Of a DNA stretch of 46,690 nt, positions 27,001 to 30,000 are shown piece after piece; the first letter of the stretch is position 1, and every line of letters begins with the position of its first letter. The stretch comes from a virus (lineage: Duplodnaviria; Heunggongvirae; Uroviricota; Caudoviricetes). Where the stretch lies: IMG/VR virus record IMGVR_UViG_2718218402_000006; one strand, 5' to 3'. The position numbers were made by a program.

Positions 27001-30000
27001 CAACACCCATCACTGTCTGTCAGAAAATGTACTGCCAGATATAAGTATCATGTGAAACCCAACTATCCTTCTTAGCCAGTACTTCTCCGACGAAAGTCAG
27101 TACTGGCTGTTTTTTTATTATGCTGCCGGTGCATTTATCTCCAGCATCAGACTTTCTATCTCAACGCCATACGCTGCATTTTTTGTAACATCCGTCAGCG
27201 TCAGCGCATTCAGTCCCAGTGTCAGACTGTCTTTTATAACCTGGAATGCCGGGCCAGCCACTCCATTCAGTTTCGGAGTAACCGTGGCACTGCCGGCGGT
27301 GAACACCAGCTCCAGCGTCTGCCAGTCGTTACCGTAATCGCCGAACTCCCCCAGCTTCGTGTTTCCGGCTTTCCTGTGATGCATCAGATTCACCCTGCCG
27401 TCAGTGGTCTGAGTGAAGTACGACATCAGGAACGGATTACCGGTACCCGTCATCGCCACACCATCAGGAACGGGAGCATCCGTATACAGATAAATCCCCA
27501 GCCCGAACTGATTGTTGGTCAGTGCGCCTGACAGGCGGAACTTACAGGTCAGTCTGCCGCCCTGTGTCAGCAGGGTAATTGCGTCATCCACCGGATGCGT
27601 CAGGGACCAGGTTTTATTGCTCTGCTTGGTGATCTTAAATACACCATCTGACAACTGAATTCCGCCATCCTTAATGCTCCAGCCCTGCGCAGCAGCCTCT
27701 CCGGCTGCCGGCAGCAGGGAGATTGTGCGAACGGACGTATCTGCAGACGGACCCGATGGCGTGTTGCCGCCGGGCGAGGGTTTGATTTCCGGTGCCTTAC
27801 CACTGATGAAGGCTGAGGTGCGCCCGGCTGCGTTCAGAATAGCGGTTGCCAGACGATCCGGAATAATGCTCCTGCGCGCCCATGAACTGAAATGTGTCGG
27901 GCGGTTTGATGATACCTGGTTTCCATTCGTTCTCGATGCCGCACCGTAATATCCTGATGCCGGAATATCCGGATCTTCTGCCGGCGCGTTAGTGGCGGTA
28001 TTGACGCCGTTACCGTCTGTCATGAAGGGCACAAAATAAACGCCCTCACTCTCCCTGTTTTTATACCCGCCGTACACGGTGTCGTATTGGGTAGCGTATG
28101 TATTTTTCCAGTAATACGTCGTGTCACCACAAACCCACGGCACATCTGCAGCGCTGCCACCATGGCACTGCGCGTTAAACACGGAGAGGTCAGCACGAAA
28201 CTGTGTCAGCATGGCTGTAAACAGCGCAGGTTGCTGTGCGTGGGTGGCGGCGCTCATGTCAAACTCACCCTGCATCCAGCAGACGGCCAGCAGAACGTTT
28301 TTGGGATTTTTCTGCAATGCCGCTTTTGTGCGGGAAATCAGATCCTGATATAACGGCTTGCCCACCCCCCAGCGTGCCGAATCCTGACTGGCCCCCGTGG
28401 ACTCGCTGAATGTCCCCTCCGCGCCCTGGGTAAATGCCGAACCACCACGACAGCATGGTACCAGCAGGATCCCCGCGTTATTCGGGATATACGGGAGCAG
28501 TTTTTTGGCAATATGTAAACCCTGGCCGACACAGCCGTACTGCCCTTTGCTCAGGTCAGCCCTCGGATGATTCAGCGTACTCATATCCTGCACATCATGC
28601 AGACAGTGGTCAGCCGGAATAATATCGTTATATCTGCAGGCAGCCCCGCCCAGCGTCACTGTACTGCGGCGCGCCAGCTGTTTAATGCGCGGATCCGGAG
28701 CATCGTATGAATCCGGCAGCGGAAGCCCTTCACCGTAAGCCATGGCATTGGACTGCCCGGCCAGTACGATGACGTAGTACCAATCCGGCTCAGATGAAGG
28801 GCCGACCTGTGGCTCTCCTTCAATAGCCACCGCCTGCATCAGTGTGTACGGCGTAATGGCAACCGGTCCGCCGTATGGCTGCCAGCCCTCTTTCAGTTTG
28901 TGTGTCAGCTTTTCCGCAAGGTCTGACGGCGACGCCGCCCTGACAACATCATAATGTTTAATCGACATCGAATTTCTCCCGTGTAGAGGAACAGAGTTAA
29001 AAAGCCGGAAGCGGAATCAAATCACAGGATGACCATCTGCCAGTGGCTGGTCGTAAAAAAAAGGCCGCGCCATGCGCAGCCGAAAATAAAGGGATAACGA
29101 TGATAGTTTGAGAAAAACAGAAATAACACTTTTGTGGCAAAGCATGGTGCCGGGTGCCTCCCGGTGAATTCAGTATCAGCACCTGAATCCGCGATTACCC
29201 CATATTCCTTCTTGCTGATTGCCCCACCGCACAGGGGGATTCACCATGCAGAAGTGTTTTTAATAAACAGCAAACAAAAAAATCAAGCATTATGCAGGCT
29301 GTTTCTTTTTATCACCGGCCACAGCAATACCATAATGCCGCAGACCAGCACCCCATCCGCCAGCACCGACATGATTCTGCTGGTGAAATCCACCATCACC
29401 ACCAGAAACAGCAGGAGTGCAGCCACAGTCAGGCGCAGTTTTACCGTCACAGGTAATTCTCCAGACGAAGACCCAGAACACCGGCAATCTCTTCCAGCAC
29501 CTTGCGCTCTTCCGGCTCAATTTCGCCGTCTGCCTCCGCAATGGCCACCGCCACATCCAGCACATCTTCCGCTTCACGCGTATCGTGTTTCACATCCTCG
29601 ATCTCACGTAACGCCGCACGACGACCAGTTTTAAAGTTCGTATCCAGCTGACCGATAATGGTTGCGCTAATCGCATTAATTTCTGACGTAAACGCGTACA
29701 GCGCAGGCTGATTACGCAGTACCTGTTCGATCTTCGCTTTCTAGGAAGCCTCACATTCACCATCTGCACAGGCCACCAGGTATGCGGCGTTAATCACCGC
29801 CTGTGCCAGATCGCGTTTCTCAAACTTTCCTTTTTCCGGTTAACGTGACACACCAATAACTCTTGTCGAAAAAGCCAGCAAGCTGAAAGACCGGTATTCA
29901 CAACCACCAGCGCGTTTACTGTACTGGCGTGATTTCAGTCATAAAAAAACCCGCCTGGCGACGGGTGTAAAAAATCTTCTAACGTCAGGCATAAAACGCC

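Follow-up and report, generated by a model that had tools for sequence, protein, structure and literature searches.

The prophage of phage P1 carries two small genes, tciA and tciB, in which a TerB-domain protein is encoded directly ahead of a short hydrophobic protein, followed by a third small gene, tciC. The P1 tci gene names were assigned 'by homology', and in a CRISPRi screen of P1 the genes came out as non-essential (PMC10695390). The stretch of DNA analysed here (46,690 nt; the window) contains a similar pair on its minus strand:

29447..29826, minus strand: remnant of a TerB/TciA-family pseudogene, corresponding to codons 19-143 of a 143-aa intact protein plus its TGA
29283..29450, minus strand: intact 55-aa DUF3927 / TciB-like open reading frame with a GTG start (Pfam, PHROGs, hydropathy)

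By sequence comparison, this TerB and DUF3927 pair is a homologue of the P1 tciA-tciB cassette. In both, a 141-143-aa TerB-domain protein stands directly before a 54-55-aa hydrophobic protein, the genes come in the same order and adjoin or overlap, and the products belong to the same PHROG families. P1 TciA aligns with P0003, an intact relative of the window frame whose numbering is used below, at 43% identity over the full 143 aa (E=4e-34), and P1 TciB aligns with the window ORF at 51% identity (E=2e-12). The two loci differ in that the tciA homologue is here a pseudogene, in that the pair occupies a lambdoid prophage's late Q-to-lysis slot instead of the P1 plasmid-prophage backbone, and in that no tciC follows it: a tblastn search with P1 TciC found no homologue in 28901-30100, and its sole match elsewhere in the window was at chance level (E=0.68). 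We found no literature on this pseudogene, TciA appearing only in P1-type annotation tables and gene lists.

TerB is also a component of the terZABCDE tellurite-resistance operon, to which the present frame is linked by the Pfam TerB model and by a match between the TerB structure of Klebsiella pneumoniae (PDB ID: 2jxu) and residues 14-137 of P0003 (E=2e-7), the similarity being distant. The equivalent 46.7-kb region of NZ_CP148578.1 has no annotation for any of the ter partner genes terZ, terA, terC, terD and terE, and a stand-alone phage TerB paired with DUF3927 is not known to act in tellurite resistance. Membership in an anti-phage defence system was likewise considered and rejected for want of a meaningful PADLOC match: among the PADLOC models, the TerB frame gave only a sub-threshold match to PDC-S48 (E=0.0028, 14.8 bits, with no stretch passing alone) and DUF3927 gave none.

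The locus is already known as an annotated pseudogene in RefSeq. A region identical over the whole slot carries the annotation 'tellurite resistance TerB family protein, pseudo, internal stop' and, next to it, 'DUF3927 family protein'; examples are NZ_CP148578.1 (WHU22_RS05560 and WHU22_RS05555) and O157:H7 prophages. The 'pseudo, internal stop' label is attached to the 100%-identical locus and to two relatives at 98.2% and 99.5% identity. The RefSeq pseudogene spans 29447-29809, starting at a CTG codon (29809), and does not record the replacement of the 5' end of the gene, a recombination junction that explains the missing start codon and is described below.

The original prediction placed the frame in a cargo slot between Q and S, and this description is correct, as the cassette lies on the minus strand between the Q gene and its terminator on one side and the esterase and holin genes (holin at 26612-26818) on the other. 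The slot comprises the following features:

30047..30868, minus strand: gene for a Q-type antitermination protein of 273 aa, bounding the slot upstream (ORF)
30016..30043, minus strand: probable late promoter pR' (TTGATT, 16-nt spacer, TGG-TAAATT; read from the sequence)
29942..29966, minus strand: intrinsic terminator resembling tR', with a GC-rich stem of 7 bp and then T7 (terminator scan)
29106..29278, minus strand: STnc100-family sRNA gene directly 3' of the TerB/DUF3927 cassette (Rfam RF02076)
29054..29081, minus strand: intrinsic terminator 3' of the STnc100 match (terminator scan)
27118..28968, minus strand: esterase-type gene, 616 aa, downstream edge of the slot (ORF)

At the identical RefSeq locus the Q gene is named 'antitermination protein', and the PF03589 Antiterm domain is recorded on the same protein in a related locus (L006). 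RefSeq names the esterase gene 'DUF6645 domain-containing protein' here and 'SASA family carbohydrate esterase' in relatives. The putative pR' elements score 8/12 and are absent from the output of the consensus promoter scan; they are followed by AACGAT, which resembles the lambda pause element, and the site itself resembles lambda pR'. The assignment is a probable one. The tR'-like terminator forms a strong hairpin (stem 29966 to 29949, tail TTTTTTTATGA). At the other end of the slot, the STnc100 match is well above its gathering score (100.8 bits against 47) and precedes a terminator with an 8-pair stem (29081 to 29063, GGCTGCGCATGGCGCGGCC) and a T-rich tail (TTTTTTTTAC). ARAGORN predicted no tRNA genes in the window, and no stx gene is found among the annotations of the equivalent 46.7-kb region.

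The TerB frame, which ends in the TGA at 29447-29449, reads ...R, stop, PEKGKFEKRDLAQAVINAAYLVACADGECEAS, stop, KAKIEQ...EADGEIEPEERKVLEEIAGVLGLRLENYL, stop. Its assignment to TerB, proposed from TerB-like repeats in the frame and left to a homology search, was borne out by that search: the conceptual translation matches Pfam TerB (PF05099) over residues 13-125 with 41.9 bits (E=1.4e-10; model cut-off 24.4 bits). The PHROG match is to phrog_632 ('tellurite resistance') with E=7e-70. The translation is 96-98% identical to intact proteins of 142-144 aa, with 98% identity to P0003. Intact relatives of 142-144 aa and 90-98% identity occur in Escherichia coli, Klebsiella, Salmonella and Serratia, and intact versions further removed (about 70-75% to the query) are known from Erwinia and Salmonella jumbo phages; the N-terminus of all intact relatives reads M(F/L)G..KK..R....(I/V)KKFEKRD. 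An alignment of 17 sequences from the family reveals two acidic D-G-x5-E motifs (D39/G40/E46 and D117/G118/E124). The second of these is kept in the window copy, and the first has a TAG at the codon of the invariant Glu46.

The partner ORF had been described as a two-TM protein of 55 aa whose start overlaps the TerB stop, and each of these features stands. It occupies 29283-29450, has a 4-nt overlap with the TerB stop (GTGA, 29447-29450) and shows two hydrophobic peaks on a Kyte-Doolittle scan, at about residues 5-23 and 26-48, with a dip between them. A GGAG Shine-Dalgarno sequence lies 8 nt upstream of the GTG. The protein matches Pfam DUF3927 with 60.4 bits (E=1.7e-16; cut-off 25 bits) and phrog_1470 ('TciB-like') with E=1.8e-29. 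As judged by these profile scores, both family assignments are far beyond chance.

The original prediction covered 29283-29860 and reported the long open frame as lacking a start codon. All of the features reported for this interval are present, but the homology to TerB ends at about 29826 and not at 29860. The long frame contains no ATG, and an in-frame TAA (29840-29842) lies upstream. DNA alignment with intact genes indicates that homology begins only at ...AAAGTTTGAG, from where it continues downstream, so that the window copy is without the ribosome-binding site and the first 18 codons of the intact gene. The sequence upstream of this point, and the second lesion of the gene, are as follows:

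29826..29970, minus strand: leader segment common to Stx2-converting phages and phiP27 (blastn, alignment)
29741..29743, minus strand: in-frame amber codon, TAG in place of GAG where the intact protein has Glu46 (sequence, DNA alignment)

A blastn comparison of the window gave 90% identity between the leader and Stx2_EH2201 and 83% between the leader and phiP27; phage matches cover only bases 1-85 of the query. In these phages the leader has the same position relative to Q and the terminator, its 145-nt terminator-plus-leader sequence being 83-90% identical to that of the window, and the genes that come after it are a different small one (L23), then those for a DNA methylase and a tRNA. In the window, by contrast, the leader is fused to TerB codon 19 and tRNA genes are absent. 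The start codon is thus missing because the 5' end of the gene was replaced by a foreign leader at about 29826. Since positions 29827-29860 belong to this leader, the TAA that they contain did not arise by mutation of TerB. The 35-mer spanning the junction is found in 501 of 5,426 complete E. coli genomes.

Two other explanations of the 5' region were discarded. A diverged but genuine TerB N-terminus, beginning at a TTG start and killed by the TAA as a nonsense mutation, was rejected because the leader is foreign. A programmed -1 frameshift at CGG AAA AAG in the leader, joining an N-terminus from another frame to TerB, was also considered; in that other frame the differences between the window and a related locus (L005) are mostly synonymous by a hand count on the DNA alignment. 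It was rejected because the leader is foreign and, in phiP27 and the Stx2 phages, runs in frame up to the ATG of the unrelated small gene. No database protein has a leader-encoded N-terminus joined to TerB.

The in-frame TAG at 29741-29743 was confirmed in the sequence. It falls in a column that is Glu in all 17 diverse homologues, P1 TciA included; the codon is GAG in all intact alleles, and TGG (Trp) variants also exist (P0002, P0004 and L011). The 35-mer carrying the amber codon occurs in 960 copies in 575 of the 5,426 complete E. coli genomes (about 10%), on several recombinant backgrounds, and is several times commoner than the GAG haplotype from which it directly derives (164 copies). 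Both lesions are common alleles in E. coli. In a sample of 92 copies, composed of 80 IMG/VR loci, 11 further loci and the window, 51 carry the TAG, and all 51 do so in one and the same 35-mer. These copies fall on four different 5' backgrounds and on 11 haplotypes of the body, and nearly every polymorphism in them is also present in non-TAG alleles. Their TerB body has no extra frameshift or stop, which could be read as retained constraint; the private substitutions among them are only two, both synonymous, and leave a selection test downstream of the stop without power. DUF3927 is cut to 43 aa in 12 of the 51 TAG copies, against 2 of the 41 non-TAG copies.

Taken together, these data make it very probable that the locus is a defunct relic of a phage accessory ('moron') cassette of two genes, with the TerB gene dead twice over and DUF3927 still intact. 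In its complete form the cassette would encode a TerB-domain protein of about 143 aa and then the translationally coupled 55-aa membrane protein. It sits in a lambdoid prophage as the first cargo past the Q-dependent late promoter and terminator, with transcription presumably starting from pR'. Recombination at about 29826 would have exchanged the ribosome-binding site and the first 18 codons for the leader of another late-operon gene, with the result that no in-frame native start is left, and a single G-to-T change would have turned the invariant Glu46 codon into amber. Both lesions appear to be old alleles of single origin, shuffled among E. coli prophages by homologous recombination. With neither a ribosome-binding site nor an ATG, and with the TAA and the amber codon in frame, the window TerB copy is not a translatable complete coding sequence, and its protein would not be made from this allele; the DUF3927 ORF is probably still translated when Q-modified polymerase reads through tR'. 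The original prediction had offered two alternatives, a decaying cargo gene or a gene expressed only with amber suppression. The former is supported by the existence of intact 142-144-aa homologues, by the loss of 18 codons and the ribosome-binding site together with nonsense at an invariant Glu, and by the RefSeq pseudogene call. The latter was not borne out.

Under amber suppression, the locus would be a conditional gene whose TerB-like protein is made only by readthrough of the TAG, through a host or phage suppressor tRNA or through leakiness, with the codon acting as an expression valve. The frame is indeed open past the TAG to its normal stop, the amber allele is frequent and free of further body lesions in the 51 sampled copies, and Trp variants exist at the same codon, but these TGG alleles are only single-member protein clusters. 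Glu is not among the residues (Gln, Tyr, Ser, Leu or Trp) that classical amber suppressors insert, so the common ones would not restore the invariant Glu46. A phage-borne suppressor tRNA was rejected on the ARAGORN result. On the host side, a scan for the supE-type glnV/X CUA anticodon found it in 156 of 5,423 genomes; the 40 matches listed look like K-12 or laboratory-type strains and give no support to supE in natural strains. Because the window copy has no native start codon or ribosome-binding site and a TAA upstream in frame, the window has no tRNA gene, supE is rare and Glu46 would not be restored, expression dependent on amber suppression is not supported, and we regard it as very unlikely. 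That the TAG is a sequencing or assembly error in a gene that is really intact is next to impossible: it is already refuted by the 35-mer counts, the same TAG 35-mer standing at 960 places in 575 independently assembled genomes and in 51 of the 92 sampled copies, and the 5' truncation is in any case a separate lesion.

A C-terminal TerB fragment translated from an internal start, either the 48-aa GTG ORF at 29447-29593 or a GTG/CTG product of 116-120 aa, might retain residual function or supply ribosomes for GTGA coupling to DUF3927. In-frame GTG codons do lie downstream of the leader, and the ORF caller lists the 48-aa ORF, ending at the GTGA overlap; the 48-aa PHROGs family phrog_3920 matches residues 96-143 of P0003, such ORFs being called in phage genomes, and databases hold 116-aa (P0037, 223 members) and 120-aa (P0030, 284 members) calls from 5'-truncated copies. 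The context of the GTG at 29593 (GAGGAT|GTG), however, places its Shine-Dalgarno-like GAGG only 2 nt off, the 120-aa call begins at a CTG codon, and the amber interrupts both the 116-aa and the 120-aa versions in the window. Of the two acidic motifs, the 48-aa piece has just the second, and DUF3927 has a GGAG of its own at good spacing and does not need the coupling. We therefore consider such a fragment unlikely. The frequency of the amber allele may be explained by drift and hitch-hiking. It seems quite improbable that this frequency instead reflects selection, whether because loss of TciA/TerB benefits lysogens that keep the TciB-like protein or because start-bearing copies gain from a tiny readthrough dose.

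The supposed suppression-dependent gene is thus a doubly disabled, annotated pseudogene of a common phage accessory cassette, and as such matters little. About 10% of complete E. coli genomes carry the amber 35-mer, and about 10% the junction 35-mer; both could be used as markers of recombination among lambdoid prophages.

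On the minus strand, the window reads as a lambdoid prophage with the gene order DUF968, RusA, Q antiterminator, slot, esterase-type gene, holin, YdfR-family gene and lysozyme. Directly 3' of Q, the sequence reads TTGATT-N16-TGGTAAATT followed by AACGAT, which we take to be similar to the lambda late promoter pR' and its pause element, at a site below the promoter-scan threshold. The slot is thus the first late-operon position, after Q, the pR'-like site and a strong terminator, as expected for the Q-to-S cargo slot of the original prediction. Scans, Rfam searches, the ORF listing and annotation placed the following features in and around it:

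42105-42156, plus strand, DicF sRNA (Rfam)
34847-34996, minus strand, sok antitoxin RNA, paired with hokD (Rfam)
30047-30868, minus strand, Q antiterminator gene (ORF listing and annotation)
29966 to 29949, minus strand, strong intrinsic terminator with a T7 tail (terminator scan)
29106-29278, minus strand, STnc100-family sRNA (Rfam, 100.8 bits)
29081 to 29063, minus strand, terminator 3' of the STnc100 sRNA (terminator scan)
27118-28968, minus strand, esterase-type gene (ORF listing and annotation)

We read window positions 28900-30400 and translated the minus strand. The frame ending at the TGA at 29447-29449 reads ...VIGVSR, stop, PEKGKFEKRDLAQAVINAAYLVACADGECEAS, stop, KAKIEQVLRNQ...VAVAIAEADGEIEPEERKVLEEIAGVLGLRLENYL, stop, with an amber codon at 29741-29743 and a second in-frame stop, TAA, at 29840-29842; no ATG was found in its open stretch. 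Its terminal stop overlaps by four bases (GTGA) the GTG start of a 55-aa ORF (29283-29450), in which a hydropathy scan detects two hydrophobic segments with a dip between them. Pfam TerB matches the conceptual translation (41.9 bits, cut-off 24.4, E=1.4e-10), bearing out its predicted TerB-like identity, and Pfam DUF3927 matches the 55-aa ORF (60.4 bits, cut-off 25). Because sequence reading, Pfam matches and hydropathy scan all agree with the predicted startless frame, amber codon, overlap and two-segment partner, these features are real and not a chance pattern.

The STnc100-family sRNA lies directly 3' of the DUF3927 ORF, before the esterase gene. A 2026 preprint links STnc100 to the PasD sRNAs, found directly 5' of prophage sialic-acid esterase genes, and lists TerB among the typical neighbours of PasA and PasC, which it places between esterase and holin (doi 10.64898/2026.05.13.724894). 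In the window, this esterase-holin interval would be positions 26819-27117.

A large protein collection, queried with the conceptual translation (amber taken as Gln), yielded 145 relatives. Intact relatives are 142-144 aa long and 90-98% identical (Escherichia coli, Klebsiella, Salmonella, Serratia), and more distant ones, with about 70-75% identity to the query, occur in Erwinia and Salmonella jumbo phages. Every intact relative begins M(F/L)G..KK..R....(I/V)KKFEKRDLAQAV. The 143-aa intact relative P0003 belongs to phrog_632 ('tellurite resistance', category moron) and matches the solved structure of Klebsiella TerB (2jxu, E=2e-7), and the 55-aa ORF belongs to phrog_1470 ('TciB-like'). In phage P1 the genes are arranged alike: tciA (141 aa), tciB (54 aa) and tciC (35 aa) directly adjoin one another. 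Along its full length, P0003 shares 43% identity with P1 TciA, and the window 55-aa ORF shares 51% with P1 TciB, but a search with P1 TciC found no homologue at the window locus. The P1 annotation names the tci genes 'by homology', and they came out as non-essential in a CRISPRi screen (PMC10695390). A PADLOC search for defence-system membership gave no meaningful match.

Alignment of the window with loci encoding intact proteins, the comparison proposed originally, reveals homology only from ...AAAGTTTGAGAAACGCGAT, that is, codon 19 (Phe19), onwards, with GAG where the window has TAG. In a phage genome search, the 85 bases 5' of this point match another set of phages, Stx2-converting ones and phiP27, in which the TerB body is absent; there, the leader follows Q and the terminator and precedes an unrelated small gene (L23 in phiP27), a DNA methylase gene and a tRNA gene. 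Because this common block (window 29826-29970; blastn identity of 90% to Stx2_EH2201 and 83% to phiP27) occurs in phages without TerB, recombination has swapped the TerB gene's ribosome-binding site and first 18 codons for a foreign leader. The TAA at 29840-29842 accordingly lies within the foreign leader and is not a TerB mutation. The junction 35-mer occurs at 637 places in 501 of 5,426 complete E. coli genomes; in amber-free 5'-truncated copies, gene callers begin at CTG (120 aa, protein cluster P0030) or GTG (116 aa, P0037).

In Stx2_EH2201, the leader open frame (GTG GCG GTG AAT ACC...) presumably continues in frame to the L23 ATG, and we take the differences between leader copies to be mostly synonymous in this frame (aligned regions: Stx2_EH2201 1501-1788, phiP27 1501-1787 and window 29794-29907, minus strand). 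Since the frame reaches the ATG with mostly synonymous differences, the L23-type gene may start further 5' than annotated. A programmed -1 frameshift at the leader CGG AAA AAG, an idea that arose from the apparent conservation of the other leader frame between the window and the related locus L005, was rejected, since in Stx2 phages and phiP27 the leader forms the 5' part of another gene.

The codon replaced by the amber is GAG in every intact allele. Across 17 diverse aligned homologues, P1 TciA among them, the corresponding Glu46 is invariant, as are D39, G118 and E124, and G40 and D117 are nearly so; D39/G40/E46 and D117/G118/E124 make up the TerB domain's two D-G-x5-E motifs. TGG (Trp) stands at the Glu46 position in P0002 and P0004, each a protein cluster with a single member, and the P0002 locus (L011) has the same flanking haplotype as the TAG allele, a TAG-to-TGG change being the simplest reading of such alleles. 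Relatives P0006 and P0007 have 1-2 additional residues just after the site (EKVKAK, EKFKAK).

The 92 copies that we examined comprise the window, 80 loci from IMG/VR and 11 further loci, a sample biased towards query-like sequences. TAG is present in 51, on four 5' backgrounds and 11 body haplotypes, and the 35-mer around it is identical in all 51. Among 5,426 complete E. coli genomes, this 35-mer occurs at 960 places in 575 genomes, the same-flank GAG 35-mer at 164 places in 159, and the other main GAG haplotype, one-mismatch matches included, at 1,373 places in 577. Carriers include O157:H7, O145:H28, O111:NM and other strains, with at most five copies per genome. Such recurrence refutes a sequencing error as the source of the TAG. 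All but two polymorphisms of TAG copies are common to non-TAG alleles; these two private changes are singletons, both synonymous, and give no power to test selection 3' of the stop. The distribution fits a single-origin nonsense mutation spread by homologous recombination among co-resident prophages, and we regard selection as a very unlikely cause of the high amber-allele frequency.

Of the 92 copies, 14 have a DUF3927 cut to 43 aa, and its truncation in 12/51 TAG versus 2/41 non-TAG copies indicates that cassette decay is still under way in some lineages; the window copy is intact. Intact tciA/terB alleles vary in homopolymer length at their Lys-rich 5' coding end (L004, L007, L011 and L012-L091). 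GGT-A6 alleles read in frame from the ATG; the common GGT-A7 alleles do not, and callers start these at a TTG 4 nt further 3' (MVFLVKK...); in L004, ATTAAAAAG has A4 for A5, and the call begins at a CTG. Judging by these 5'-end variants, the gene has been disrupted or given a new start by several independent routes.

The pseudogene is already on record at the annotation level. In the 100%-identical locus of NZ_CP148578.1, RefSeq lists a 'tellurite resistance TerB family protein' as pseudo, with an 'internal stop', followed by a 'DUF3927 family protein', and does likewise in 98.2% and 99.5% identical relatives from O157 and other strains; only the 5' junction is absent from the record. Relative to this otherwise 99% identical prophage, the window carries a 1,934-bp insertion (32371-34304) with about 10 bp matched on both sides and two plus-strand ORFs, 32423-33100 and 33100-34275, the latter possibly an IS66-type transposase as read from its sequence. 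The insertion closely precedes the DUF968 gene; the longest DUF968 ORF is 313 aa in the window (31246-32187) versus 354 aa annotated in NZ_CP148578.1 (31246-32310). The annotated equivalent region holds virulence-type cargo: an NleB-family effector, sodC, Lom/Ail, PerC and the Paa adhesin.

The original prediction left two fates open, a decaying cargo gene or one expressed only with amber suppression. Suppression or readthrough yielding a TerB-like protein is extremely unlikely: the window copy lacks a start for translation whatever the suppressor, and the invariant Glu46 would stay unrestored. Moreover, ARAGORN detects neither tRNA nor tmRNA genes in the window. A tRNA-Gln2 35-mer bearing the supE anticodon matched 5,267 genomes with one mismatch, which validates it as the wild-type gene sequence, and 156 exactly; the 40 matches listed of these 156 look K-12 or laboratory-type (for example C600, DH5alpha, DH1 and J53). 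An internally started TerB fragment, functional or coupling-preserving, such as a 48-aa GTG ORF recorded in PHROGs as phrog_3920, has poor Shine-Dalgarno spacing against it and seems decidedly improbable. With two lesions and a RefSeq pseudogene call, the first fate stands: the locus is a decaying cargo gene, not a suppression-dependent one.

In all likelihood, then, the remnant is transcribed by Q-modified readthrough of the late terminator tR' and no TerB-family protein is made. Upon induction, Q-modified RNA polymerase from pR' would pass tR' and transcribe the remnant, which would yield no such protein; the DUF3927/TciB-like ORF should still be translatable without coupling because of a GGAG 8 nt 5' of its GTG. 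For relatives with an intact cassette, we infer that a soluble TerB-domain protein and its co-translated two-segment partner would act at the inner membrane, since the two genes are coupled through the GTGA, the N-terminus is basic and amphipathic, and the pairing is fixed from P1 to lambdoid phages.
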